From: an uncultured Acidobacteriota bacterium
Lineage (GTDB): Bacteria > Acidobacteriota > Vicinamibacteria > Vicinamibacterales > 2-12-FULL-66-21
DNA: 64,000 nt
Reading direction: 5' to 3'
Assembly (NCBI GenBank): GCA_963717745.1
Contig: CAVQXJ010000002.1
Coordinates: 222,063 to 286,062, forward strand
Below are positions 4,492 to 49,352 of this stretch, one piece after another. Under the pieces are notes generated by a model that did not search any database, was not told the origin of the DNA, and saw only the letters and a list, made by a program, of their open reading frames with translations. How positions within the stretch are numbered: the first letter of the stretch is position 1; each line of letters begins with the position of its first letter. The position numbers and the translations under genes are program-made.

Positions 4492-4824
4492 GACGATCTC
4501 CTTTCGGATAGTGCCCGCGTCCGCTCGACGGGCTGAAAGAAGATCGCAGATGGTGACGAAGCCTGGCTCAGGTGGGCTCAGCCCTTCCCGCGGACGGGGT
4601 GCGTCCTGTCACGCGGGATCATTGTACGCACGATTCCACAGGCCGGCCAAAGGGCACGGGTCCGTTGGCCCGGCACCGCGATCCTCGACGGCGTGGATCT
4701 ACAATGCGCTCTCGGAAGCCCGGTCCCTGGACGAGTTCTGGCGCTGGGCATACTCGGCGCGTCGGCGACTACGACAGCCCGCGACCGCAACGTGTCGCAA
4801 TCAGCAAACGACAGGGAGCGCCGT

Positions 4825-7248
4825 ATGGCGAGGACCGAATATCTGACGGAGCTCGGGCAGGATGTCGGCTACGCGCTGCGCATGCTGCGCCGCGCACCCG
4901 GCTTCACGCTCGCCGCCTTGACTACTCTGGCGCTCGGCATCGGCGCCAATAGCGCCATCTTCAGCGTTGTCCACGGCGTCCTGCTCGCGCCGCTGCCGTA
5001 TCGTGATGCCGGCCGGTTGTATCGCATCACGACCCTCTATCCGGACGGGACGGCCTACTCCCTCTCGCCACCCGATTTCATGAGCGTGCGAGAGCAAACG
5101 CGAACCCTCGAGCAGGTGGAGGGATTCTCGGGCGGCGTCTACACGATGCTCGACGCCGGCGAGCCGCGCGAAGTGCGAGGGACGAGCGTCAGCGATCGTC
5201 TCTTTGGCCTCCTCGGTGTGGACGTCGCACTCGGCCGAGGTCTGTTGCCGGGCGACACTCAACCGGGGCACGAACGGGTGGCCGTGCTCGACCATGGGTT
5301 CTGGCAGCGGCAGTTCGGTGGCGATCGCAGCGTGCTCGGCCGCAGGATCAGGATCGCCGGCTCGCCGGTCGAGATCGTCGGCGTGCTGGCGCGCGGCACC
5401 CGGTTGCTCGACGCCGCGGATGTGTATACGCCGCTGGTCTACAACGACACGTTCAGCGCGGCGACCGCGAAGGGCAGACGCGGTGAGTTCCTGACGGTCA
5501 TCGGCCGTGCGAAGGCAGGCATCTCGCTCGCGCAGACTGATGACGACCTGCGGCGAATTGGCGGTCAGCTGCAGGTGGCGTTCCGCGAGACCAATCAGGC
5601 GTTGACGTTCAACGCCTTGCCGCTCACCGAGGTGATCGTGGGCGACGTGCGAACGCCGCTGCTCATTCTGCTCGGCGCCGTTGGCTTCGTGTTGCTGGTC
5701 GCCTGCGCGAATGTCGCCAACCTGCTCCTGGCGCGCGCCTCCGCACGTCAGGCGGAGCTGGCGGTCCGATCGGCGCTCGGTGCCGGCCGCGTACGGCTGC
5801 TCCGTCAGCTGCTGACCGAGGCTCTGGTCCTCGGGACCGCTGGTGCCGTGCTGGGCCTGGCGATGGCGTTGGTGGCGACGCGCGCGCTGGTGGCCGCGCA
5901 ACCGGCCGACATTCCGCGGTTGGAAGACGTCGGTGTGAACGGCATGGTCGTCATCGTGACGTTTGCGATCGCGATCGCGACCAGCGTCGGGTTCGGGATG
6001 TTGCCGGCGCTTCAGCTCACCGGCGCGCGCCTGCCGACCGCCTTGCGCGAGAGCACGCGCGGTGGCGCGAGTGTCGGCGGGCAGTGGATGCGATCGGCGC
6101 TGGTGGTCGCCGAGATGGCGCTTGCGGTCGTCCTGTTGATTGGTGCCGGGCTGTTGATCAGGAGCTTCGTCCAGTTGACTCGCGTCGACCCCGGGTTCCG
6201 CGCCGACCAGGCACTCTCGTTCCGAGTCGTGCTCCAGGGCGAACGATATGCCCAGGATGAGCCCACCCGCATTCGCGTCGCGGAGTTCGAGCAGCACTTG
6301 AGACGGTTACCCGGAGTCTCGACGGTCGGCGCCACCAGCCTGCTCCCGCTCAGCGGCCGCGGCGCGATGGTCGGCTTCGCCGTCGAGGGCGCGCCGCCCC
6401 CGCCGCCGAATGTCAATGCCGAAATCGCCTTGGCCAGTGCCACGCCCGACTACCTTCGGGCGATCGGAGCGACGGTCAGGCAGGGCCGCCACTTCAGCGC
6501 TCAGGACGACACCGCTGCGCCGCGCGTCGCGATCGTGAACGAGGCCGCGGTGCGACGATGGTTCGCTGGTCAGAATCCGATCGGCCGCCGGGTCATTACC
6601 AATGGTGCGCCGCGCGAGGTCGTGGGCGTCGTCGCCGACCTGCTGCAGCGAAGCGCCTCGGACCCGGTGGCGCCGATGGTCTTCGTGCCGTTCGCGCAGC
6701 GGACCATCAGGTCGATCAAGATGGCGGTGCGGACGACCGGCGATCCGGCGGCGCTGGCGCCGGCGATTCGCGCCGAGATCCGGGCGCTCGACGCCGATCT
6801 CGCGATTGCCGACATCACACCGATGACACAGCTGGTCCTCCGATCGCTCACCGCGCCGCGCTTCTACACCAGCCTGCTGGCGCTCTTTGCCGGCGTCGGC
6901 CTCGTGCTGGCGGCGATCGGCGTGTTTGGCGTGATGAGTTATGCCGTGGCGCAGCGGGTCCGCGAGATCAGCATTCGTCTCGCGCTCGGCGCACTGCCGC
7001 GCGAGGTGCTGCGGATGATCCTCGGCCACGCCCTCGGCCTGTCCGCGATCGGCGTCGTCGTGGGCCTCGCGGGAGCGATTGGACTCGGACGCGTCATTCA
7101 GGGCCAGCTGTTCGGCGTCGCACTCCTCGATCCCGTGACGTTGGTCGGCGTCCCGCTCGTGCTCGGCGCGAGCGCAGGGCTGGCGAGTTATCTCCCGGCA
7201 CGGCGCGCGATGAAGCTCGATCCAGCGAGCGCGCTGCGCGAAGGGTGA
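4825..7248 (+). CDS. ADOP-family duplicated FtsX/MacB-like ABC permease, paralog 1
   Basis: ORF 4693..7248 trimmed to ATG 4825 (MARTEYL). Has the N-terminal TM motif LALGIGANSAIFSVV, two FtsX-like 4-TM blocks, and a C-terminal DPASALREG. Confidence 0.9.
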   Translation: MARTEYLTELGQDVGYALRMLRRAPGFTLAALTTLALGIGANSAIFSVVHGVLLAPLPYRDAGRLYRITTLYPDGTAYSLSPPDFMSVREQTRTLEQVEGFSGGVYTMLDAGEPREVRGTSVSDRLFGLLGVDVALGRGLLPGDTQPGHERVAVLDHGFWQRQFGGDRSVLGRRIRIAGSPVEIVGVLARGTRLLDAADVYTPLVYNDTFSAATAKGRRGEFLTVIGRAKAGISLAQTDDDLRRIGGQLQVAFRETNQALTFNALPLTEVIVGDVRTPLLILLGAVGFVLLVACANVANLLLARASARQAELAVRSALGAGRVRLLRQLLTEALVLGTAGAVLGLAMALVATRALVAAQPADIPRLEDVGVNGMVVIVTFAIAIATSVGFGMLPALQLTGARLPTALRESTRGGASVGGQWMRSALVVAEMALAVVLLIGAGLLIRSFVQLTRVDPGFRADQALSFRVVLQGERYAQDEPTRIRVAEFEQHLRRLPGVSTVGATSLLPLSGRGAMVGFAVEGAPPPPPNVNAEIALASATPDYLRAIGATVRQGRHFSAQDDTAAPRVAIVNEAAVRRWFAGQNPIGRRVITNGAPREVVGVVADLLQRSASDPVAPMVFVPFAQRTIRSIKMAVRTTGDPAALAPAIRAEIRALDADLAIADITPMTQLVLRSLTAPRFYTSLLALFAGVGLVLAAIGVFGVMSYAVAQRVREISIRLALGALPREVLRMILGHALGLSAIGVVVGLAGAIGLGRVIQGQLFGVALLDPVTLVGVPLVLGASAGLASYLPARRAMKLDPASALREG

Positions 7249-7268: not shown

Positions 7269-9758
7269 ATGCGCTGGCTCGCCGATCTCCTCGACGACGT
7301 TCGCTATACGTGTCGCACGTTGCGCCACCATCGCACGTTTGCGGTCGGGACCATACTCACCCTCGGACTCGGCATCGGGGTCAACACGGCGGTCTTCAGC
7401 GTCGTCAATGCGCTGCTGCTTCGGCCGCTGCCGGTGAGCGGGGGTGAGCGGCTGGTGGTCCTCGGCAGCCGTGGCTCTGGGACGGCGGCCTTGGGCCCGA
7501 TGTCGTTTGCCGACCTCCAGGATTTTCGAGCCGCGACGCGAGACGTCCTCGACGACATCGCAGGGTATAGCGTCGGTTTCATCGGGCTCGCCCCGGAACA
7601 CGGACCCACCTTCGCGCTGCGCGCTACGGCGGACACGCGTCCTGCCCGCGTGCTGGCGACGTGGGTCACCGGAAACTATTTCGAGCTGCTCGGCATCCAG
7701 CCGGCACTCGGCCGGTTCATTCAGAGCGCCGAAGGAGCGCCGGGACGGATCGACCCGGTCGTCGTGCTGGGTCACGCGACGTGGCGCCAGCGGTTCAACG
7801 GCGACTCGGCCATCGTCGGCAAAACCGTGCGCCTCAACGGTCGAGTGTGCACGATTGTCGGCGTCGTCCCACCAGGGTTCGCCGGTACGTTCGCGTTCTC
7901 CGCATCGGAGGTGTACCTGCCGATCACCTGGGCCCCAGGTTTCCTGCACGATGACCGCGGCGGCCGGATCCTGCACACGCTCGCGCGACTGCGAAACGGC
8001 GCTACTCTCCAGCATGCACAGGCGGTTGCCGATCTCGTCGCAGGCCGGCTGGCGCGGGAGCATCACGAGACCAACGCCCACGTCGGCGTGACGGTAGTGC
8101 CCGAACGCCTTGCGCGTCCGGAAGAGAGCAATGCGCAATCGAACCAGTACGTGGCGGCAGCTCTCCTTGGGCTCGTGGCGCTGGTGTTTGTCGTGGCTGC
8201 GGTCAATGTGACGAGCCTGCTGTTGGTGCGTTTCCTGAGCCGGCGAAAGGAGCTGGCGGTGCGCCTCGCGCTCGGGGCCGGCCGTGCGCGGCTCGTTCAA
8301 CATCTCCTGGCAGAGAGTGCCGTCCTGTGCTGCCTCGGCGGCGTTGCTGGCGTCGCGTTCGGTGCGGCGGCGGCGCGCGCGCTGACGCTGGTGCGGCTTC
8401 CCGGAGATCTCCCGGTTCGTTTCGACTTTTCACTCGATCATCGCGTCGTGGTGTACGGGCTTGCGGTCACCGCGGTGACGGCCATCATCGTCGGCATCAC
8501 GGTGGCGGGCCGTTTCTCGAAGACGACCATAGACGAGGCGCTCCGCGACCGGGGGTCTGGTGCGACTCCGAGTCGGGACGGCGAGCGCATGCGCAAGACA
8601 CTCGTCGTCGCGCAGGTGGCCGTGACCGTCGTGCTGACGCTCGCCGGCGGGTTGTTCGTACGCGGCCTGTCAGCGGCACAACGTGTCGATCTCGGATTCC
8701 TCCCCGAGCGTGTGCTCAACGTCCAGATGGACGTCGGACAGGTGGGGTATTCGGAATCGAAGGGCCGCGCCTTCTTCGATGCCGTAGAGGCTCGCATACG
8801 CGCGCTTCCGGGCGTCGACGCGATGGCCTACGCATTCTCGGTGCCGTTTGGATATGTGAATCTCGGGTGGTCCGTGCACGCCCCGGATCAGCTCGCGGCG
8901 CGGAGAGAACACATCCGCGCCGGCACGAATATCGTCGACCCGCAGTACTTCTCCACTCTGTCGATCCGCATCGAGTCCGGCCGTGGCTTCACACCGGCGG
9001 ATGGGCGAGACGCACCCCGGGTGGCGATCGTGAACCGCCGTCTCGCGGACCTGTTGTGGCCAGATCAGGACGCGATCGGTCGCCGGTTCAAGGAGGTGAC
9101 GGAAGACAGCCCCTGGATGGAGGTGGTTGGCGTCACGCCGACGGGAAAATATCAGTTGCTGTTCGAAGATCCGCTGCCCTACTACTATGTGCCGATCGCG
9201 CAGCACTACACGGCTCTGAGAGTGCTCCACGTCCGCAGCAGGCTGTCTCCCGAGGGAATCACCCAGGCTGTGGAGCGCGCGATTCACGGTCTCGAGCCTG
9301 ACCTTCCGCTCTACGACGTGCAGACCATGACCAGGGCCTTGGACAGTGCGCGCGGCCGGTTCCTCGTGCGCGCGGCCGCTCTTTTCGCTGCGCTGCTCGC
9401 GCTGCTCGCCCTCGTGCTCACCGTGCTCGGACTATACGGAATGGTCGCGTACGTGACGAGCCAACGTACGCAGGAAATCGGCGTGCGAATCGCGCTCGGT
9501 GCCACGGCGCGGAACGTCGTGCAGCTCGTCGGCACCGAGGCAGTCAGGCTCACGTTGCTCGGCGCCGCGATTGGGTTCGCGGGTGCGTACCTGAGCGCCC
9601 CGCTGCTCCGACGCCTGCTGTTCGGTGTGGCGCCGACGGATTGGGTCGCGTTCGCCGGTGCCCTCGTGGGTCTGATCGCGGTGACGGCCGCTGCGACCTG
9701 GATGCCCGCGCGGCGTGCCGCGCGCATGGATCCGCTGCGCGCCCTTCGCTCTGAATAG
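7269..9758 (+). CDS. ADOP-family duplicated FtsX/MacB-like ABC permease, paralog 2
   Basis: ORF 6558..9758 trimmed to ATG 7269 (MRWLADLLDDVRY...LGLGIGVNTAVFSVV). Same architecture as paralog 1; ends DPLRALRSE. Confidence 0.9.
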   Translation: MRWLADLLDDVRYTCRTLRHHRTFAVGTILTLGLGIGVNTAVFSVVNALLLRPLPVSGGERLVVLGSRGSGTAALGPMSFADLQDFRAATRDVLDDIAGYSVGFIGLAPEHGPTFALRATADTRPARVLATWVTGNYFELLGIQPALGRFIQSAEGAPGRIDPVVVLGHATWRQRFNGDSAIVGKTVRLNGRVCTIVGVVPPGFAGTFAFSASEVYLPITWAPGFLHDDRGGRILHTLARLRNGATLQHAQAVADLVAGRLAREHHETNAHVGVTVVPERLARPEESNAQSNQYVAAALLGLVALVFVVAAVNVTSLLLVRFLSRRKELAVRLALGAGRARLVQHLLAESAVLCCLGGVAGVAFGAAAARALTLVRLPGDLPVRFDFSLDHRVVVYGLAVTAVTAIIVGITVAGRFSKTTIDEALRDRGSGATPSRDGERMRKTLVVAQVAVTVVLTLAGGLFVRGLSAAQRVDLGFLPERVLNVQMDVGQVGYSESKGRAFFDAVEARIRALPGVDAMAYAFSVPFGYVNLGWSVHAPDQLAARREHIRAGTNIVDPQYFSTLSIRIESGRGFTPADGRDAPRVAIVNRRLADLLWPDQDAIGRRFKEVTEDSPWMEVVGVTPTGKYQLLFEDPLPYYYVPIAQHYTALRVLHVRSRLSPEGITQAVERAIHGLEPDLPLYDVQTMTRALDSARGRFLVRAAALFAALLALLALVLTVLGLYGMVAYVTSQRTQEIGVRIALGATARNVVQLVGTEAVRLTLLGAAIGFAGAYLSAPLLRRLLFGVAPTDWVAFAGALVGLIAVTAAATWMPARRAARMDPLRALRSE

Positions 9759-9766
9759 CGTGAGTG
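9735..9766 (+). repeat. 32-bp direct repeat, left copy (covers the 3' end and stop codon of ADOP paralog 2)
   Basis: CTGCGCGCCCTTCGCTCTGAATAGCGTGAGTG; 31/32 identical to 10498-10529. Confidence 0.9.
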
Positions 9767-9832
9767 TTCATGCGCGGCGATGGTGCGGCGGATACGAGGT
9801 CAGGACACCCAACAACCGTCCTGGCACGCCGC

Positions 9833-9846
9833 GCCATAAATATGGC
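9833..9846. promoter_or_regulatory. 14-bp palindrome GCCATAAATATGGC upstream of vapB, candidate TA autoregulatory operator
   Basis: Perfect palindrome 12 nt upstream of the vapB ATG. AT-rich centre in an otherwise GC-rich spacer. Confidence 0.4.
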
Positions 9847-9857
9847 ACAATGACCTC

Positions 9858-10085
9858 ATGCGCACGACGGTCGATATCCCCGATGGAATGTACCGCCGGC
9901 TGAAGTCCCGGGCGGCGCGCGAGGGCAGCTCGACCAGGGCGCTCATCCTGCGTGGCGTCAAGGAAGTGTTGAAGACCGAGCGTCGGAAAGCCGGCGCCCC
10001 CGTGTCATTGCCGATTGTCCGGTCCAAGCGTCCTGGCACGGTGGCCCTGAGCAATGCCGCCATCTACGACATCGCTTTTCCCTGA
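9858..10085 (+). CDS. vapB: type II antitoxin, ribbon-helix-helix VapB-like
   Basis: 75 aa. MRTTVDIPDGMYRRLKSRAAREGSSTRALILRGV is typical of RHH antitoxins. Overlaps the downstream PIN gene. Confidence 0.8.
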   Translation: MRTTVDIPDGMYRRLKSRAAREGSSTRALILRGVKEVLKTERRKAGAPVSLPIVRSKRPGTVALSNAAIYDIAFP

Positions 10086-10494
10086 CATCAACGTCTGGGT
10101 CGCGCTCACTTACGAGGGGCACGCGCACCACTCGAACGCCGCAGCGTGGTTTGCAACGGTGTCACGTGATGCGACCCTGGCTTTCTGCCGATTCACGCAA
10201 CTCGGCTTGCTGCGGCTGTTGACGGCGGAAGCCGTGATGAACGACGAGGTCATGTCCCAGCCGGAAGCGTGGGTGGCGTATGACCGATGGCTCGAGGATC
10301 CACGCGTCGAACTCGTTGGCGAGCCGGCGGAGATCGAGACCCGCTTTCGGGCGCTCACGCGCCTTCGCCAGCCAGCCACCAAAGACTGGGCCGATTCCTA
10401 CCTTGCCGCGTTCGCGACCGTCGGACAGCTGACGCTGGTGACCTTCGATCGGCGTCTGCGGGCAAAGGCGAAGTCGGCGATCCTGCTGGAGTAA
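10054..10494 (+). CDS. vapC: type II toxin, PIN-domain VapC-like ribonuclease
   Basis: FPDINVWVAL start, then ...DSYLAAFATVGQLTLVTFDRRL. The acidic-residue pattern fits a PIN domain. Start codon uncertain (10054 ATG used). Confidence 0.8.
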   Translation: MPPSTTSLFPDINVWVALTYEGHAHHSNAAAWFATVSRDATLAFCRFTQLGLLRLLTAEAVMNDEVMSQPEAWVAYDRWLEDPRVELVGEPAEIETRFRALTRLRQPATKDWADSYLAAFATVGQLTLVTFDRRLRAKAKSAILLE

Positions 10495-10497
10495 CCC

Positions 10498-10529
10498 CTG
10501 CGCGCCCTTCGCTCTGAATCGCGTGAGTG
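10498..10529 (+). repeat. 32-bp direct repeat, right copy (4 nt after the vapC stop)
   Basis: CTGCGCGCCCTTCGCTCTGAATCGCGTGAGTG. The only difference from the left copy is the middle base of the former stop codon (TAG vs TCG). Confidence 0.9.
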
Positions 10530-10564
10530 CGGGCTGGCGGCAATCAACGGAAGGGAGGGCTCTC

Positions 10565-12934
10565 ATGTGGTGGCGCATGCTCTGGTGGGACCAACTTCGT
10601 CAGGACGCCCGATCGGCGATCCGTAGCATCGCGAAGTCACCGGTGGCCTGCCTCGTCGCGGTCGCGTCGCTCGCCGGCGGAATCGGCGCGACGACGGCCA
10701 CGCTGACGCTTCGCAACGCGATCTTCTACAACCCGCCGCCGCTGTATGCGCAGCCGTCCGAGCTGTCGCGCCTCGAGATCAGCACCCCCGAGCGGCGCCG
10801 CGCCGGGATTCCTGGCGCGCTCTTCGACACCTGGCTGGCTGATGGCGTGTGGCAGGGCAGAATGGCCGCCGCGACCGCGGCTCGTGGTGCCGAGATTCGG
10901 GTGGGCGATCGAGTGGAAACTCGTCCAGTCCGTGCCGGGACCGCCGACCTGTTTGCGATTCTCGGCGTGCCGCTGGCGCTGGGTCGTGCGTTCCCGGCCA
11001 TGCCTGAACCGGACGGACCGCCGCCGCTGATCATCAGCTTCGCCGTGTGGCAGACGCTGTTCGACGGCCGCTCCGACGTGATCGGAACGACCGCCTGGGT
11101 GGGTCAGCGAGCGCACGTGGTCATTGGCGTGACGCCGGAGCGATTCTGGTTCGGCTCGTTGCAGGCGCCGCTGTGGACGTACTTGCCGCGCGAGGGCGCC
11201 GCCGCCCAGCCCGCGCTCGACGTTGTCGTGCGCCGTCCCCGACAGCTGTCGATCGCGGCTGTGGCCGAACAGCTCCAACACAGCGCTGAACCGTACCGCC
11301 AGCGCCAGCCGGCGGCAACGCGCGACGTGCGCGTGGTGGCATCCGGCATCGGTGGCACTGGACTCGGCGATCAGATGGCCGTGGTGATCCCCTACCTGGC
11401 CGGCGCCGCCGTGTTCCTGACACTCCTGATCTCGTGCGCGAACGTCGCGATTCTGATGTTCGCCCGCTGGACAGGCCGGGAGCGCGAGATGGCCATTCGC
11501 TCGTCGCTCGGAGCGCGGCGCGGACGTGTCGTGCAGCTGCTGTTGACCGAAGCCGTGTTGCTGGCCATCTGCGGTGGTGTGCTGGGCGTCTGCACGACAT
11601 TCGCGCTCCGTGGACTGTTCGTGCGCAATATGCGGGGCGCTCCCAATTTCGACCTGTCGATCGACTTCGTGATCCTGTTGCAATCAGCCGCGGTCACGAT
11701 CGCGGCCGGCATACTGGCCGGCATTGCGCCGGCGCTCTACGAGACGCGCCGCCTTCAGACGAACCCGCTACGGCTGCTCGCGACCTCCGACCGCGCCCGG
11801 CAACGCTGGCGGCACACGCTCGTCGTGCTCGAGATTTCGGTGACGGTCGCGTTGATGGTGGTCGCGGCGGGACAGATCGACGCCTCGCGACGGATGCTGT
11901 CATCTGGCGTCGGATTCCCGACGGCGCCTCTGATGACGGCGCGCGTGGAGAATCCCGGAGGCGTGGATGTGGCCCGTGTGCTCGACCTGCTCCGGGCGAT
12001 GCCCGGCATCGAGGGCGCAGGAGCCGGTACCGCTTTCCCGATGGCAGTCGGAGCGCCCACGGAGCGTGTGTCGGCCCCCCCTGGTTCCATCGTGGTGGCA
12101 GCGGAGCGCGTATCGATCACTCCGGACTATTTCACGACCCTCGACGTGCCGCTGCGCGCGGGCCGGACATTCACCACCGCGGATGGGAACGGGCAGCCAC
12201 GCGTGGCCATCGTCAACGAAACGCTTGCCCGCCAGCTGTGGGGCGACCGCAATGTCGTGGGCGATCGGCTCACCGCCGGTGGGCAGGCGTATGAAATCGT
12301 CGGCATGGTCGCCGGCTACGCGCGCGGCCCGATGCGTGGACCGGTGCCGCGATACTACCTGCCGTTCGCGGTCGAACCGTCACCGGTCCGCCTGCAGGTC
12401 ATCGTTCGTGCGACGCAGGATCCGCGGCCGCTCGTCACGCGGATCCGGCAGGAAGTCCGACATCTCGGCCCGAACTACTCCGTGCCTTCGGCATTCGCGC
12501 TCGACGACGTCATCGAAGTGGGGGCCAGGGAGATGCTCGCATTCGGCGTGGCGATGAGCCCCTTACTCGCGATTGGCGTCTTCCTGACCGCGACCGGCAT
12601 CTTCGGCGTGCTCGCATTCGCCATCACGCGGCGCGCGAAGGAACTGGCGCTGCGAATTGCCCTCGGCGCCGGCCGGAGTGAGATCGTCCGCGTGGTCATC
12701 GTTCAGACGCTGGGATTGGTGACGATCGGCTCCGCGCTCGGCGTCGCGGTCACGCTCGGCCTTTCCAGGATGGTGGGGGCGGCCGGCGGTGGCGGAAGCT
12801 CATTCGGCACTCCCGGCTGGGAGGCCTTCGCCATTCCGGTGCTGCTCGTCCTCGGCGTCGGCGCGCTGGCGAGCTGGATTCCGATCGCACGCGCCCTGCG
12901 AATCGATCCGGCGATGGTGCTCAAGACGGAGTGA
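10565..12934 (+). CDS. ADOP-family duplicated FtsX/MacB-like ABC permease, paralog 3
   Basis: ORF 10523..12934 trimmed to ATG 10565 with GGAAGGGAGGG upstream. Has MWWRMLWWDQLRQDARSAIRSI, two FtsX-like blocks, and a C-terminal DPAMVLKTE. Confidence 0.9.
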   Translation: MWWRMLWWDQLRQDARSAIRSIAKSPVACLVAVASLAGGIGATTATLTLRNAIFYNPPPLYAQPSELSRLEISTPERRRAGIPGALFDTWLADGVWQGRMAAATAARGAEIRVGDRVETRPVRAGTADLFAILGVPLALGRAFPAMPEPDGPPPLIISFAVWQTLFDGRSDVIGTTAWVGQRAHVVIGVTPERFWFGSLQAPLWTYLPREGAAAQPALDVVVRRPRQLSIAAVAEQLQHSAEPYRQRQPAATRDVRVVASGIGGTGLGDQMAVVIPYLAGAAVFLTLLISCANVAILMFARWTGREREMAIRSSLGARRGRVVQLLLTEAVLLAICGGVLGVCTTFALRGLFVRNMRGAPNFDLSIDFVILLQSAAVTIAAGILAGIAPALYETRRLQTNPLRLLATSDRARQRWRHTLVVLEISVTVALMVVAAGQIDASRRMLSSGVGFPTAPLMTARVENPGGVDVARVLDLLRAMPGIEGAGAGTAFPMAVGAPTERVSAPPGSIVVAAERVSITPDYFTTLDVPLRAGRTFTTADGNGQPRVAIVNETLARQLWGDRNVVGDRLTAGGQAYEIVGMVAGYARGPMRGPVPRYYLPFAVEPSPVRLQVIVRATQDPRPLVTRIRQEVRHLGPNYSVPSAFALDDVIEVGAREMLAFGVAMSPLLAIGVFLTATGIFGVLAFAITRRAKELALRIALGAGRSEIVRVVIVQTLGLVTIGSALGVAVTLGLSRMVGAAGGGGSSFGTPGWEAFAIPVLLVLGVGALASWIPIARALRIDPAMVLKTE

Positions 12935-12955
12935 GAGACGCCGTCGGACGACTGC

Positions 12956-14539
12956 TCAGTACCCGATCCGGCGGAGGGCTTCTGCGCCACGGCGCTCGCT
13001 CAGCTGCGCCAGATACAAGCTCGGCGGTGACACAGGGACCCCGGGAGACTCGATGGTCTCCGAGGGAATCTCCGGGATCGCGATCGCGTTCCCGTGCCAC
13101 GACACCGGCGTCGGACGACCGGTGCATCCGATGCACCAGTTCTTCGCGCCCGGAGGCTGCTGGATCAGCAGGTAATCGGTCTTGACGTTCCACGCGACCG
13201 CCCAACCGACGCTCCAGCCGTGGCCGGACCCGGCGTACTCGCGGTTTGCGAACGCGAGGTTCGGCCGGCGGTCCGTGCCGTTGAGGAATTCGCTGCTGTC
13301 CACGAGCAACCCGGTGGCCCAGCGCTGGTGCGGCGCCACACCCGCTTCGTCAGCCTTGAAGTTGAGCACGACATTCGGTCCCGTCACGCCGGCTTGCGTG
13401 ACGATCGGCCACACCCGCTTGCCCCGCACGGTCGAACGGTGCACGAGAATCTGCGTCCCGGAGATGGCGATGTCGGCTGGCGACGCCGCTCCGCTGAAGG
13501 GCACCGTATGGCGGATGTGGATACCTTCCAGGGTGATCCGGCGGGTGGTCGGGCCGAGCGTGATCGTGTTCTGAGTGTCGACCACGGCGATGTCGCGAGC
13601 CCAGGCATCGCTGACCGCGTTCATGCGCAGCAGCGTGTACTGGCCCTCGGTGATGGGGGCGTCGCGCGGCGGAACGACGACGCGAAGTGATTCGACGCCC
13701 ACCTGTTCGATGCGGCCCGGAAACACGTACTTGACGATCGCTGCGCCAGGCGGGTTGAGGTGCGCGGCGTCGTAAGAATCCGACAGCGGCACATCCAGCG
13801 TGACGCGGTCGCCCGCGACAGACGCAACCGTGCGATCGGCGTCGATCGTCGTGCCCGGCGCGATCCACACCTGCGGCTTGCCGTCGCGGCTCAACTTGTC
13901 CATGTTCATGAAGCGAATCCAGGCGTCGGTGACCGGCCGCCGGATCAGCACGTGGTCGCCAGGCTTGAACCGTGCGGCTCCATCGACGCGGACGTGACCG
14001 GTTCCTGACGGGACGTACGCATCCACGATCGCCGCAGGCGCGCCATCCGGCTGCCACGTGCCGGTCCCGGTCATGTCCAGGAATCGATGCGGCGGCCCCG
14101 TCACGCTCATGACGGTGCCGGTGTCGCCGGAGCCGCTGCCGCGGAGCACGACGCCAGTGGCGGCGATGCGCAGCGTCCCACTCACTTCATACGTGCCAGG
14201 CTGCAACAGCACGGCGCCGCGAAAGCCATCGGGCCCGATCGGCGCGCGCGACACCTCGTCGAGCGCGGCCTGAATCAGGGCCGTGTTGTCACCCGCCGAT
14301 GCGCCGAGCCTGCGCACGACCGGCACCACGGGCAGGGCCACGCCGCCGCCTCTGTAGCCCGCGTGCGAGAAGTCCATGACCCGGTTGCCGCGTGGATCCG
14401 CCGCGTAGCGCAACGTCTGCTGGGCGTCCAGGTACACCCATTTGGATCGACCCTGCCCGGCGAGTGTCAACGTGGTGAAAAGGACGAGCAGGAAGGTCGT
14501 AACGGGCTTCACGGCGTCCAATTGTAACCGTGGAGTCAT
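12956..14539 (-). CDS. secreted right-handed beta-helix (pectate-lyase-fold) protein
   Basis: ORF 12956..14761 trimmed to ATG 14539 (MTPRLQLDAVKPVTTFLLVLF signal). MDFSHAGYRGGG...NTALIQAALDEV...GTYEVSGTLRI resembles pectate_lyase_3-type N-termini. Confidence 0.75.
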   Translation of the reverse strand: MTPRLQLDAVKPVTTFLLVLFTTLTLAGQGRSKWVYLDAQQTLRYAADPRGNRVMDFSHAGYRGGGVALPVVPVVRRLGASAGDNTALIQAALDEVSRAPIGPDGFRGAVLLQPGTYEVSGTLRIAATGVVLRGSGSGDTGTVMSVTGPPHRFLDMTGTGTWQPDGAPAAIVDAYVPSGTGHVRVDGAARFKPGDHVLIRRPVTDAWIRFMNMDKLSRDGKPQVWIAPGTTIDADRTVASVAGDRVTLDVPLSDSYDAAHLNPPGAAIVKYVFPGRIEQVGVESLRVVVPPRDAPITEGQYTLLRMNAVSDAWARDIAVVDTQNTITLGPTTRRITLEGIHIRHTVPFSGAASPADIAISGTQILVHRSTVRGKRVWPIVTQAGVTGPNVVLNFKADEAGVAPHQRWATGLLVDSSEFLNGTDRRPNLAFANREYAGSGHGWSVGWAVAWNVKTDYLLIQQPPGAKNWCIGCTGRPTPVSWHGNAIAIPEIPSETIESPGVPVSPPSLYLAQLSERRGAEALRRIGY

Positions 14540-31623: not shown

Positions 31624-31660
31624 GCTGTCAAGGGAGAAGGCAGAAGGGAAAAGGGAGAAC
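31624..31660. repeat. repeat family B copy 2 (single arm)
   Basis: GCTGTCAAGGGAGAAGGCAGAAGGGAAAAGGGAGAAC lies between two convergent stop codons. Its last 34 nt are identical to the reverse complement of 52014-52047. Confidence 0.85.
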
Positions 31661-35430: not shown

Positions 35431-36678
35431 ATGAAAATGCTCCTCGCCTCCAGCCTCTTGACCGCGTCCGTGCTGATATCCGGACCGGTCGATCAACAGC
35501 CCGCCGGCTCGGCGGCAGCCATGTCGGGCACCTGGCGGGCGCGGCTGTCGGAGACCTGGACTCGCCGGGACGGCGAGCGCTGGGTGTCGTTGAATCTGCA
35601 GCGCGACGGCAATCACAACTACGGCACGTCGGTGCGCCAGTCCGAGCTCGAGGCCGCCGGCATCCGCGGCGAGTCGTTCTCGGGCAGCAACGTGCATTTC
35701 TCGCTGCCGCGGGCCGCCGGCCGGTTCGAGTTCGAGGGCTCGTTCGACTCGGGCCGCGGCGGCGGGACGTTCCGCTTCACGCCGGACGCCGCGTTCATCT
35801 CGTCGCTTCAGAAGACCGGGCGTCAGGTGTCGACCGACGACGCCCTGCGGCTGGCGCTTCATGATGTGGATCAGGCCTTCATCGCGTCGATCGAGGCCGC
35901 CGGCTACAAGGGCGTGAGCGTCGAGGATCTGATCAAGATGCGCATCCACGGGGTGGACGCCGACTACATCAGCGGCCTGCGAAAGGCCGGCTACACCAGC
36001 CTGTCCGTCGAGGATCTCATCAAGACCCGGATTCACGGCGCCACCCCCGCCTACGTCGCCGAGATGCGCAACGCCGGCTATACCGGCCTGTCCATCGACG
36101 ACCTGGTGAAGACCCGGATTCACGGCGCGACCCCGGCGTTCATGCAGGAGGTGAAAGCCGCGGGCTTCGAGCGGCTCTCGGTGGACGATCTCGTGAAGAT
36201 GCGGATCCACGGCGTGTCCGCCGACTTCATCCGCCAGATGCGCGCCCTCGGCCACAAGGAGCTGACCATCGACGACATGGTCGGCATGCGGATCCACGGC
36301 GTCAGCCCCGAGTTCATGAAAGAGATCAGCGCGCTCGGCTACCCGAACCCGCGCATCAAGGATCTCGTCGCGATGCGGATTCACGGCGTCACCGCGGCGT
36401 TCGTCAAGGAGCTGGCGGCGCTCGGCTATACCAAACTGTCGATCGACGACCTCGTGAAGATGAAGATTCACGGTGTGACCCCGCAGTTCATCCGCGAGCT
36501 CAAGGATCTCGGTTACGGGTCGGTGGCCTCCGAGCGGCTGGTGCAGTTCCGCATCCACGGCGTGGATGGCGAGTTCATCCGCGAGGTGCAGAAGGCCGGC
36601 ATGAAGGACATGACAGAACAGGAGCTGGTGGAGTTCAGCATCCACGGCGGCCGCCGCTGGCTGCGCCGGACACGTTAG
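35431..36678 (+). CDS. secreted tandem-repeat protein (about nine 29-aa LSxDDLVKMRIHGVTPEFIxELxxxGY repeats)
   Basis: ORF 35413..36678; ATG 35431 gives a signal peptide (MKMLLASSLLTASVL). Nine IHG-centred repeats with 87-nt DNA periodicity from about 35830 to 36660. Confidence 0.8.
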   Translation: MKMLLASSLLTASVLISGPVDQQPAGSAAAMSGTWRARLSETWTRRDGERWVSLNLQRDGNHNYGTSVRQSELEAAGIRGESFSGSNVHFSLPRAAGRFEFEGSFDSGRGGGTFRFTPDAAFISSLQKTGRQVSTDDALRLALHDVDQAFIASIEAAGYKGVSVEDLIKMRIHGVDADYISGLRKAGYTSLSVEDLIKTRIHGATPAYVAEMRNAGYTGLSIDDLVKTRIHGATPAFMQEVKAAGFERLSVDDLVKMRIHGVSADFIRQMRALGHKELTIDDMVGMRIHGVSPEFMKEISALGYPNPRIKDLVAMRIHGVTAAFVKELAALGYTKLSIDDLVKMKIHGVTPQFIRELKDLGYGSVASERLVQFRIHGVDGEFIREVQKAGMKDMTEQELVEFSIHGGRRWLRRTR

Positions 36679-36696: not shown

Positions 36697-36740
36697 CCCC
36701 GCGTGTCAAGGGAGAAGGCAGAAGGGAGAAGGGAGAAAGG
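36697..36740. repeat. repeat family B copy 3 (single arm)
   Basis: CCCCGCGTGTCAAGGGAGAAGGCAGAAGGGAGAAGGGAGAAAGG ends 1 nt before the rdgB stop codon. Preceded by the small hairpin GCGGGG-N13-CCCCGC. Confidence 0.85.
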
Positions 36741-42503: not shown

Positions 42504-42539
42504 ACCAACCTTCGCGTGACAGGAGAGCGAAGGTTGGTG
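42503..42539 (-). terminator. 13-bp-stem hairpin at the 3' end of ssrA
   Basis: CACCAACCTTCGC-N11-GCGAAGGTTGGTG. One arm includes the tmRNA ACCA end. No clear U-tract. Confidence 0.45.
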
Positions 42540-42888
42540 GAGGCGGCGGGATTCGCACCCGCGTCCGAAAATACTTCCCCGCAGGAATCTACGATGCGTA
42601 TCCGCTTCTATTTTGTCGCTCCCGACGTGTGGAAGCGGCGAAGAACCGTCGGGAGCCAACCCCAGAAAATCTTATCGCTGACGTCTGAGGCACCCGTCAG
42701 CAACCAGCCTACTAAAATGACATCCACTCCCGGCCCGCAGGCTGACCGGGGTAGACGCTCACAGGTTCTTAGGCTGCGAGTGCGAGCTGCGTGTCCGCAG
42801 TTAGTGTTGTTTCCATCTTTTGTCGAGGGTGATGGTCCTCGGCACGCATCCTGCGAAACCGTACCTCCGTCGAATCTAGGTCGCCCCC
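42535..42888 (-). ncRNA. ssrA: transfer-messenger RNA (tmRNA, SsrA)
   Basis: Minus strand starts GGGGGCGACCTAGATTCGACGG and ends GGACGCGGGTGCGAATCCCGCCGCCTCCACCA (tRNA-Ala-like acceptor/T-arm). Internal tag frame GCG GAC ACG CAG CTC GCA CTC GCA GCC TAA gives ADTQLALAA. Confidence 0.93.
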
Positions 42889-49272: not shown

Positions 49273-49302
49273 CTGGCGCGAAGCGCCAGCGCGCCGCAGG
49301 CG

Positions 49303-49352
49303 CCGTGGACATGAACGCAGCGTGACGGCCGTGGACATGAAGGCAGCGTGAC
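49303..49352 (+). repeat. tandem direct repeat, 2 x 24 nt at 26-nt spacing, overlapping the start codon of the downstream gene
   Basis: CCGTGGACATGAACGCAGCGTGAC (49303-49326) and CCGTGGACATGAAGGCAGCGTGAC (49329-49352), with one mismatch. Confidence 0.85.

Follow-up and report, generated by a model that had tools for sequence, protein, structure and literature searches.

A vapBC toxin-antitoxin pair bracketed by a 32-bp duplication of a permease gene end in an uncultured acidobacterium

Insertion with long target duplication is a name given to a mode of arrival of restriction-modification units (Nobusato et al. 2000, Gene 259:99; Furuta, Abe & Kobayashi 2010, PMC2853133). In these cases the unit lies between direct repeats of more than 30 bp, a relative has the empty site, no mobility gene is present and the repeats often lie over a start or stop codon (PMC2853133; review PMC3874152); in H. 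influenzae, for example, 46-bp repeats reach 15 bp or 2 bp into a gene at its 3' end (PMC2853133). Furuta et al. tie the phenomenon to DNA breakage by the restriction enzyme (PMC2853133). In the searchable literature this footprint is described for restriction-modification units only, and for no classical toxin-antitoxin (TA) systems. Chromosomal integrons such as the superintegrons of Vibrio carry TA cassettes, the minimal mobile elements of Neisseria are alternative contents held between conserved genes in different strains, and homology-facilitated illegitimate recombination is a model that comes from competent bacteria.

In the window, that is, the whole 64-kb stretch of DNA analysed, which comes from a soil acidobacterium, a vapBC pair lies between two co-oriented genes of the ADOP family, and this locus is a clean new example of the described footprint, which is a rare one, not a new kind of element. 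The upstream gene, ADOP2 (7272..9758, + strand), encodes a duplicated MacB/FtsX-type permease (TIGR03434, 766 bits against a cut-off of 622; Pfam MacB_PCD and FtsX), is a 100% match to P0121 and has an alternative GTG start at 7245 that overlaps the stop codon of ADOP1. The downstream gene, ADOP3 (10565..12934, + strand), is intact and encodes a divergent ADOP-family permease of 789 aa with matches to MacB_PCD and FtsX and a TIGR03434 score of 495 bits, under the cut-off of 622; its orthologues stand at 82-96%. The ADOP genes form a tandem array here, their number differs among relatives, and their C-termini are conserved at the protein level (…DPxxALRxE in three of three genes).

The direct repeat, CTGCGCGCCCTTCGCTCTGAAT[A/C]GCGTGAGTG, was recovered by a scan of the window where the original prediction had placed it, at 9735..9766 and 10498..10529 (both + strand), with 31 of 32 positions identical. 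Its sole mismatch, at position 23, is indeed the middle base of the stop codon, which reads TAG (9756-9758) in copy 1 and TCG (10519-10521) in copy 2. Two details had to be corrected: the 32-mer runs 8 nt beyond the TAG and not 10, and 3 nt (CCC), not 4, lie between the vapC stop and copy 2 of the 32-mer. The repeat gains 3 nt on the left to reach 35 nt (9732-9766 and 10495-10529, 33/35), so that copy 2 begins immediately past the vapC stop codon (TAA, 10492-10494), and the right junction joins GAGTAACCC to CTGCGCGCC. Copy 1 comprises the last 7 codons of ADOP2 (LRALRSE), the TAG and the following 8 nt, and it is the copy that leaves ADOP2 intact. Copy 2 is non-coding, and the C in its former stop codon is derived because all empty sites described below have A at that position; this one substitution, A to C, fits an unconstrained relic.

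No third match to the 32-mer was found in the 64 kb on both strands with one degenerate position and up to 3 mismatches, so the repeat has two occurrences in the window, and 100 dinucleotide-preserving shuffles produced no match at all, the chance expectation being none. The original prediction had recognized that a 32-mer found at many ADOP ends would count against an insertion. In the window, however, it is absent from the ends of the other two genes, ADOP1 and ADOP3, and in the metagenome collection a relaxed 24-mer occurs on two contigs only, both of them orthologous ADOP2 ends; ADOP genes do not generally end in the 32-mer. That the repeat is no insertion footprint at all, being a gene-end motif, a chance match or an assembly artefact, is hardly credible, even though the ADOP C-termini are conserved as protein and the source is a metagenome-assembled contig, for the repeat includes 8 non-coding nucleotides, the other ADOP ends differ, shuffles do not reproduce it, relatives have one copy and the left junction recurs in an independent sample. 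Moreover, the copies differ by one base, which is not expected from a collapsed k-mer loop and argues against an artefact of that kind.

The 731 bp between the copies (9767-10497) hold nothing but a leader (59-66 nt), an operator-like inverted repeat, vapB and vapC. The leader (9767..9825, + strand) is non-coding and common only to the lineage of the related contig L016, from which it differs by 11 mismatches in 65 aligned nucleotides and 5 gap positions (over 9767-9832); it has no similarity to the other cassette contexts or to the empty-site spacers. A search for its donor locus found none, and the insert therefore cannot be shown to be an arbitrary piece of a larger donor. The cassette core (9826..10494, + strand, BLAST boundaries) begins about 32 nt upstream of the start codon (ATG) of vapB and ends with the stop codon of vapC. 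In it the inverted repeat GCCATAAATATGGC (9833..9846), read from the sequence as 6-bp arms GCCATA/TATGGC around AA, sits 12 nt upstream of vapB, is identical across all cassette contexts and is presumed to be a VapB operator overlapping the promoter. The vapB gene (9858..10085, + strand) encodes a 75-aa antitoxin candidate with a ribbon-helix-helix-like N-terminus, whose match to the FitA-like ribbon-helix-helix profile is weak (20.6 bits, under the cut-off of 27) and which gave no match against solved structures; a conserved 75-aa partner stands upstream of VapC in all loci. The vapC gene (10054..10494, + strand), which overlaps vapB by 32 nt, encodes a protein of 146 aa that scores 45.5 bits with PF01850 (cut-off 23.6) and 109.7 bits with TIGR00028 (cut-off 73.6). 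It distantly matches VapC43 of M. tuberculosis (PDB 7vwo), in an alignment that takes in the N-terminal D as well as the DxxDxxLAA and D-R acidic positions; on these matches the toxin gene product is a PIN-domain member of the VapC family.

Two related metagenome contigs, L019 and L014, have an empty site, where a single 32-mer at the ADOP2 stop is followed by a 42-nt spacer and ADOP3, and alignment showed both to be colinear with the window on either side of the single copy. L019 shares about 91% nucleotide identity with the window in ADOP2 and 90% amino acid identity in ADOP3, and L014 shares 84% amino acid identity in ADOP2. Just such relatives had been predicted, with one 32-mer and then directly a CGGGCTGGCGGCAATCAACGGAAGGGAGGG-like spacer and the third permease, and the objection that relatives without vapBC might still have two copies fell away, since each has one; orthologous single copies occur in L014, L016, L017 and L019. 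In agreement with this, two contigs represented by gene tables (no DNA) have short gaps here: the next gene starts 45 nt past the end of ADOP2 in the P0122 contig (ADOP2 92% aa), and the gap is 42 nt in the 20-kb contig of P0242 and P0362 (ADOP2 91% aa). The remainder of the native spacer in the window (10530..10564, + strand) is colinear with the empty-site spacer in the alignment of L019 and L014 and contains a purine-rich, ribosome-binding-like GGAAGGGAGGG at 10549-10559. Because relatives have the empty site, vapBC was inserted with target duplication, and the reading as a self-contained TA module that entered between two permease genes and doubled 32 bp holds. Copy 2 might instead be what was left, after trimming to 32-35 nt, of a longer target duplication or of the 3' end of a lost tandem ADOP paralogue. 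Such trimming is very unlikely, as no relative has an extra gene or a longer duplicate here, colinearity with the one-copy empty sites is exact and similarity ends abruptly 3 nt past the vapC stop; in its favour are the variable number of tandem ADOP genes, the published long target duplications, which are often at least 100 bp (PMC3874152), and the microhomology-type deletions that are evident in the region from variants at the 5' end of ADOP3 and from deletions in the contigs L016 and L029.

This one intergenic site is found in four natural states: empty, with a PadR gene, with vapBC, and with vapBC beside a truncated neighbour. The PadR gene occupies the same site in L017, with no duplication. 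The fourth state is that of L016 and L029, contigs from independent samples and assemblers, in which the left junction is the same as in the window, the vapC stop runs directly into an internal piece of ADOP3 and no second repeat copy is present. Since the shared left junction comes with a truncated ADOP3, the history of the site had more than one step. Cassette divergence is 3.6% between L016 and L029 and 3.8-4.8% between these two and the window, so the truncated arrangement, as diverse within itself as it is distant from the window, was not derived recently. Furthermore, the window and L016 differ at 15 of 174 synonymous sites in vapBC against 65 of 224 in the adjacent ADOP2 tail (Fisher p = 3e-7), and ADOP2 of the window is closer to that of the empty-site contig L019 than to that of L016 (p = 0.05). 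At some time after its origin, therefore, the insert was transferred from lineage to lineage or was precisely lost. As in the minimal mobile elements of Neisseria, one intergenic site may hold nothing, a PadR gene or vapBC, and the insert here is younger than its flank, which is expected under allele exchange, in that system as in homology-facilitated recombination, but these models alone predict no target duplication.

That a breakpoint lies no more than about 4 nt from the vapC stop both in the window and in L016 and L029 is an unexplained coincidence, and this leaves room for an origin in two steps by homology-facilitated illegitimate recombination, with the duplication as a by-product of the second joint. 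The first event would have placed the leader and vapBC after ADOP2 with deletion of the spacer and about 1.3 kb of ADOP3, giving the form seen in L016 and L029. In the second, DNA of an empty-site relative would have restored ADOP3, recombining on the right through homology within ADOP3 and joining illegitimately on the left, at a point that lay 32-35 nt inside the incoming ADOP2 tail and abutted the vapC stop, while addiction to vapBC would select against a two-sided homologous replacement, which would remove the module. This course accounts for both right-hand junctions at the vapC stop and starts from an arrangement that is real, its junction being common to two independent assemblies, and, by the divergence given above, not recent; most cases of long target duplication, too, are in naturally competent species (Furuta et al., PMC2853133). 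We nevertheless regard it as unlikely, for it requires two rare events, the truncated form is equally derivable from the window form by one deletion, and a sliding comparison of the window with L019 gives uniform identity (about 88-95%) all along ADOP2 and ADOP3, without the step that the end of an imported tract would leave near 11790.

The cassette core also occurs, at 85-88% nucleotide identity, in at least three other, unrelated genomic contexts, the surroundings being a TonB-receptor locus (L001-L010), a DUF498/radical-SAM locus, an IS-rich locus and the neighbourhood of SpoVR. Its homology ends are ragged and differ by context, and neither the 32-mer nor any flanking repeat of at least 22 nt accompanies the copies in these four surroundings. 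The cassette core is mobile via other, imprecise routes.

The absence of a nearby recombinase, also part of the original prediction, was borne out: none is encoded within about 9.7 kb, and neither integrase nor transposase was found among the large ORFs from 19 to 20331. The description of the duplicated site as “att-like” finds no support if a recombinase site is meant, there being no dyad symmetry beyond chance, terminal inverted repeat or integron core, and no recombinase within that distance. The best 11-N(4-8)-11 dyad pairs 7 of 11 positions, which 51% of shuffles equal; the insert ends, compared in inverted orientation, match over 5 nt at most, with no terminal inverted repeats; region 9700-10600 has no GTTRRRY, one RYYYAAC and no GTTRRRY pair; and array-type repeats are absent. 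An IS, transposon or MITE was rejected for lack of terminal inverted repeats and for a duplication of 32-35 bp as against 2-14 bp, and an Xer-dependent module (dif-like 11-6-11) because the dyad is no better than in shuffles. With the TA cassettes of chromosomal integrons the locus shares a compact, promoter-bearing TA pair of about 0.7 kb, but an attC-type palindrome, GTTRRRY cores, intI and a cassette array are all missing, and an integron gene cassette was therefore rejected as well. Like the integrative elements that rebuild the 3' end of a target gene (tRNA, tmRNA and protein-gene att sites), the insert is bracketed by a repeat of tens of bp and the gene end is kept; unlike them, it has no integrase in or near it, its repeat is asymmetric and its other copies carry no att-like sequence. 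A site-specific integrative element was set aside for want of a nearby recombinase, of att sequences at the other copies and of any reuse of the site.

It is accordingly quite unlikely that the 32-mer is an attachment site at which a 763-bp circular one-copy cassette was integrated by a tyrosine, serine or Xer-type recombinase encoded elsewhere, in analogy to integron cassettes, dif modules and islands restoring the 3' end of their target gene; the circular junction would then be the vapC end, the 32-mer and TTCATGCG. The length of the repeat is within the att-core range, the target gene is restored as by evolved integrative elements, A on the left and C on the right fit a crossover in the last 9 nt, two diverged lineages have an identical left junction, and repeated site-specific insertion could yield a vapBC younger than its flank. 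Besides the missing recombinase and the missing sequence signatures, however, this proposal has against it the ragged cassette copies elsewhere without repeats, the PadR state without duplication, and the fact that the 32-mer and the relaxed 24-mer bracket nothing else in the window and the metagenome collection.

The entry of a 731-bp vapBC fragment was probably a single illegitimate event that needed no recombinase, an insertion with long target duplication. The fragment would have been captured in the spacer of 42-43 nt between the two co-oriented permease genes, with doubling of a 32-35 bp target made up of the last 7 codons of ADOP2, its stop and 8 nt further. The initial step may have been strand breaks about 32-35 nt apart, or a replication template switch with re-entry 32-35 nt upstream, and fill-in of the overhangs on either side of the captured fragment would then give the direct repeat; for restriction-modification units the mechanism is likewise without explanation (PMC2853133). 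The fragment would come, as a complete self-regulated operon, from a vapBC cassette family that is taken to be in wide circulation among soil Vicinamibacteria-like bacteria. With the stop codon of ADOP2 inside the duplicated segment, the insertion would be nearly neutral, copy 1 saving ADOP2, and copy 2 with the old spacer saving the ribosome-binding region of ADOP3. We infer TA activity, in which VapC, a PIN RNase, would be neutralised by a labile VapB that would additionally repress at GCCATA-AA-TATGGC, and stabilisation of the insert by addiction. Long target duplication of vapBC is a single instance, from which recurrence of the mechanism is not demonstrable. It is doubtful that the vapBC family is an autonomous, recombinase-free selfish unit which enters gene ends by long target duplication, its repeats then serving excision or amplification, or that a trans-acting system recognises ADOP tails. 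Were either true, the facts that two diverged lineages have an identical left junction and that the cassette is younger than its flanks would go back to repeated targeted insertion instead of ordinary allele exchange. The selfish unit would then parallel, among TA systems, the “virus-like life cycle” that has been proposed for restriction-modification units.

The likeness to the restriction-modification cases can be followed along the marks used by Furuta et al. (2010). An empty orthologous site is present in the DNA of L019 and L014 and in the gene tables of P0122 and P0242; the repeats exceed 30 bp and align to one empty-site copy; and the small, addiction-type insert is under 20 kb, has no transposase, integrase or other mobility gene and no terminal inverted repeats, and is flanked by a repeat that is unique in the window. 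Here, too, the repeat spans a stop codon and the neighbour gene survives. Their survey was confined to restriction-modification cargo, which is not part of the mechanism; the cargo here is a type II vapBC pair, the host is an uncultured acidobacterium, and the repeat of 32-35 bp is at the short end of the restriction-modification range (46 to about 420 bp). The idea that a nuclease of the cargo makes the break is weakened by this locus, because the VapC toxin, an RNase, does not cut DNA and so cannot supply the break.

Spread of chromosomal TA modules without a vehicle is poorly documented, and most of them simply sit “in regular chromosomal positions” (PMC3874152). The locus resolves one arrival to the base pair, with the empty site, both junctions, the target duplication of 32-35 bp and two intact neighbour genes, and the long-target-duplication footprint now reaches beyond restriction-modification units to a TA pair. 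As a single event in metagenome assemblies, its value is that of a well-documented example, and the four-state site may be used to follow gain, loss and addiction-biased recombination in uncultured Acidobacteria.

Three genes for ADOP-family permeases of the MacB/FtsX type, all with MacB_PCD and FtsX domains, lie in the window, namely ADOP1 (4693-7248), ADOP2 (7272-9758) and ADOP3 (10565-12934), and they score 878, 766 and 495 bits against TIGR03434, respectively, the last being below the cut-off of 622. ADOP1 is located between an ankyrin-repeat gene and ADOP2, and its stop overlaps an alternative ADOP2 start at 7245-7248. Between ADOP2 and ADOP3 are vapB (9858-10085, 75 aa), which has a sub-threshold FitA-like RHH match, and vapC (10054-10494, 146 aa), which is above the cut-offs of PF01850 and TIGR00028 and distantly matches VapC43 (PDB 7vwo). 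An inverted repeat, GCCATA-AA-TATGGC (9833-9846), stands 12 nt upstream of vapB. The two genes overlap by 32 nt (10054-10085), which is above the usual 1-4 nt; there is no alternative in-frame start of vapC ahead of the vapB stop, and the VapC homologues among the matches listed are all called at 146-147 aa. The other large ORFs at 19-20331 encode a PQQ dehydrogenase, a ThuA-domain protein, an ankyrin-repeat protein, a family-2 glycosyltransferase, a GNAT acetyltransferase, an alpha/beta hydrolase and several proteins without a family, and none of the large ORFs in this range is an integrase or transposase. Consensus scans of 9500-10800, which are uninformative for this phylum, gave neither a sigma-70-like promoter nor an intrinsic terminator.

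The 32-mer CTGCGCGCCCTTCGCTCTGAAT[A/C]GCGTGAGTG matches the 64-kb window, searched on both strands with up to 3 mismatches, only at 9735-9766 (copy 1, the 3' end of ADOP2) and 10498-10529 (copy 2, after vapC), and matched in none of 100 dinucleotide-preserving shuffles of the window, so that the two-copy observation of the original prediction is confirmed. A single base separates the copies, TAG (9756-9758) in the first and TCG (10519-10521) in the second. Two details of the prediction need correction: copy 1 runs 8 nt beyond the TAG instead of 10, and only CCC, not 4 nt, stands between the vapC stop and copy 2. With a 3-nt leftward extension the repeat finder gives a pair of 35 nt (33/35 identical; 9732-9766 and 10495-10529), and copy 2 therefore starts right at the end of the vapC stop codon; the right junction, from the vapC end into copy 2, reads GAGTAACCCCTGCGCGCC. 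The 731-bp insert between the copies begins right after copy 1 with TTCATGCG, its non-coding leader carries TTCATGCGCGGCGATGGTGCGGCGGATACGAGG, and its G+C content of 0.62-0.65 is slightly below that of the flanks (0.67-0.71). Searched against the window and all collected loci for a donor, the leader gave only chance matches of 12-13 nt. Microhomology joining via the final 9 nt of the 32-mer was considered, since GCGTGAGTG also ends vapC in L001, a locus with the cassette in another context; it was rejected because the window's own vapC ends differently (GAGTAACCC) and what such joining would produce is not observed. In addition, a 12-nt inverted repeat (9708-9719 and 9823-9834, GCGCGGCGTGCC and GGCACGCCGCGC) joins the tail of the ADOP2 coding region to the leader-core boundary and encloses copy 1, but this may be chance in G+C-rich DNA (BLAST E ~0.9).

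The window carries a second long direct repeat, the purine-rich 34-nt TGTCAAGGGAGAAGGCAGAAGGGA[A/G]AAGGGAGAA (33/34), at 31626-31659 and 36704-36737, each copy in a short gap between convergent genes and 5078 nt apart; the copies may bracket a further segment or represent an intergenic element that is repeated. Further features are five 87-nt (29-aa) repeats within a coding region (35899-36594), a tmRNA gene on the minus strand (42535-42888, tag peptide ADTQLALAA) and a near-perfect tandem pair of 25 nt, GCCGTGGACATGAA[C/G]GCAGCGTGAC, at 49302-49352 just upstream of an ORF start.

The empty site predicted for relatives is present in two contigs fetched by way of the collected ADOP2 and ADOP3 homologues. 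L014 (GCA_011392945.1; ADOP2 84% identical in amino acids) reads …CTGCACGCCCTTCGCTCTGAATAGCGT… with the ATG of the ADOP3 orthologue 42 nt on, and L019 (GCA_033612675.1; ADOP3 90% identical in amino acids, ADOP2 tail 91% in nucleotides) reads …CTACGCGCCCTTCGCTCTGATTAGCGTGAGTC AGGGCCGGCGGCATCCACGGGAAAGGAGGCGCTC ATG…. Each has one copy of the 32-mer, and aligned to the window both are colinear with the copy-1 side upstream and the copy-2 side downstream. Gene tables of two more contigs concur: the next gene begins 45 nt past the end of ADOP2 in the contig of protein P0122 (ADOP2 92% aa), and 42 nt lie between the two genes in the 20-kb contig of P0242 and P0362 (ADOP2 91% aa). Comparison of the window with the contigs of P0122, P0123 and P0242 shows an ADOP array upstream of ADOP2 that varies among relatives; an ankyrin gene is directly followed by ADOP2 in the P0122 contig, and PadR, ADOP and RibD_C genes are upstream in that of P0123. 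The idea that the 32-mer is a common end motif of ADOP genes fails, as the other ADOP ends in the window do not match it and a metagenome scan with a relaxed 24-mer found only L017 and L014, both orthologous ADOP2 ends. That scan gave no further occupied sites, and the ADOP3 query against genome contigs returned only relatives of 26-29% identity and no close species representative.

As for a programmed insertion site, the best 11-N(4-8)-11 dyad has 7/11 matches and is equalled in 51% of shuffles, the insert ends in inverted orientation have at most 5 nt in common, and no GTTRRRY core occurs in 9700-10600. This lack of site signatures, together with the lack of a nearby recombinase and the absence of the 32-mer at other copies of the cassette, argues against att, attC, dif and transposon readings. 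The proposal of a toxin-antitoxin (TA) module inserted with target duplication is supported by the empty site; its "att-like" implication is not supported.

VapC homologues number 3297 at E ≤ 1e-10, the best 120 of these 3297 all being at least 82% identical, and the cassette core (window 9826-10494) is found again at 85-88% nucleotide identity in unrelated contexts: between a 517-aa gene and a TonB-dependent-receptor-like gene (L001-L010), downstream of DUF498 and radical-SAM genes (L020, L024, L030-L039), in an IS-rich region (L021-L023, L025, L027, L028) and adjoining SpoVR (L026, L035). Depending on the pair compared, the shared homology ends on the left at -32, -71 or -110 nt from the vapB ATG and on the right at about -5, +28 or about +307 nt from the vapC end. 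No flanking direct repeat of at least 22 nt was found in these other contexts, and searches for a close copy on plasmids, phages and viral contigs were negative or gave distant matches (<40% or 42%). Taken together, this makes the cassette family mobile, though not by a site-specific route with defined ends. An identical VapC (P0020) occurs in at least three neighbourhoods (L020-L028) with 98.4-99.9% nucleotide identity over blocks of varying extent, a distribution that implies very recent movement or rearrangement of the family near IS elements. In L020 (3690-3748) and L021 (3690-3747) the shared block ends about 300 nt downstream of vapC in …CCCCGGTTCAAATCCGGGCGGCGCCTCCA, which resembles a tRNA or tmRNA 3' terminus; it is precisely here that the contexts part, and transposase genes of the IS481 and IS30 types come after it. 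ARAGORN gave no complete tRNA at this block end, probably the remnant of a site where an island was attached. A circularly permuted or tandem donor was considered on account of TTCATGC, which is common to the start of the insert and the 3' edge of the L020/L026 shared block, and was dropped because the match is no longer than these 7 nt and similarity stops there.

Other states of the ADOP2/ADOP3 site exist. L016 (VapC 96% aa) has the window's left junction, that is, the ADOP2 tail, the 32-mer (29/32), the leader and vapBC, and right after its vapC stop come pieces of ADOP3 that correspond to 11812-11976 and 12752-12999 of the window. A chimeric assembly is rejected and the arrangement is real, because the right junction recurs in L029, obtained from another sample with another assembler. 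Decayed ADOP3 thus lies directly 3' of vapC in L016 (1555-1984) and L029 (660-760) with no second repeat copy, and the left breakpoint falls inside the stop codon of vapC, about 4 nt away from where the insert ends in the window. These two loci bring in the main rival to a single insertion, a two-step route in which the truncated arrangement came first and ADOP3 was then restored by one-sided homologous recombination, the illegitimate joint falling at the vapC end. Such a route would explain why neither right-hand junction lies more than about 4 nt from the vapC stop, which the preferred single-insertion model leaves as a coincidence. Along ADOP2 and ADOP3 the sliding identity of the window to L019 stays level, with no step; it gives no sign of mosaic import of ADOP3, although it is compatible with import too. 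In L017 (1-1300, Ga0190265_10047193) a minus-strand PadR regulator gene (230-625) separates ADOP2 from a longer ADOP3, and there is no duplication. At 847 aa, this ADOP3 is extended N-terminally by about 58 residues in a stretch missing from the window, L014 and L019, where the 5' end of ADOP3 looks as if it arose by deletion between short TGGTGG-type repeats (N-termini MWWR|MLWWD in the window and MWW|D in L019).

Between the window and L016, synonymous differences are 15/174 in vapBC and 65/224 in the ADOP2 tail of 816 nt (Fisher p = 3e-7), while in the same tail the window differs from the empty-site L019 at 46/224, its ADOP2 being nearer to L019 than to L016 (p = 0.05). The younger vapBC and these affinities of ADOP2 mean that the insert was exchanged between lineages, or precisely lost, after its origin. 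Its presence or absence is a segregating polymorphism and no clean clade marker. The single derived change in copy 2 fits the age of the cassette (P = 0.58) better than that of the flank (P = 0.02), and the cassettes of the window, L016 and L029 are about equidistant (3.6-4.8%). Leader divergence is intermediate, with 11/65 aligned nt mismatched and 5 gap positions (p = 0.10 and p = 0.06); a first reading of the leader as older than the core was dropped on these intermediate statistics.

The footprint is that of "insertion with long target duplication", which was defined by genome comparisons of restriction-modification units and features direct repeats of more than 30 bp, a relative with the empty site and no mobility genes (PMC2853133). 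A start or stop codon often lies within its repeats, which lets the neighbours survive; in the Haemophilus influenzae examples the 46-bp repeats overlap the 3' end of a gene by 15 bp and by 2 bp (PMC2853133). Within the papers searched, reviews report this footprint for restriction-modification systems only and not for classical TA systems (PMC3874152); here, in contrast, the cargo is a TA pair and the host an acidobacterium. In the preferred single-insertion model, the cassette would have entered by one recombinase-independent illegitimate event, in which staggered breaks with fill-in, or a replication template switch, would produce the duplication. The insertion would be neutral since the ADOP2 stop lies within the duplicated segment, while the ribosome-binding region of ADOP3 is kept by copy 2 and the old spacer; TA addiction may then stabilise the insert. 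As one event, known from metagenome assemblies alone, the vapBC locus is an acidobacterial case, with a TA cargo, of a known but rarely documented type of insertion.
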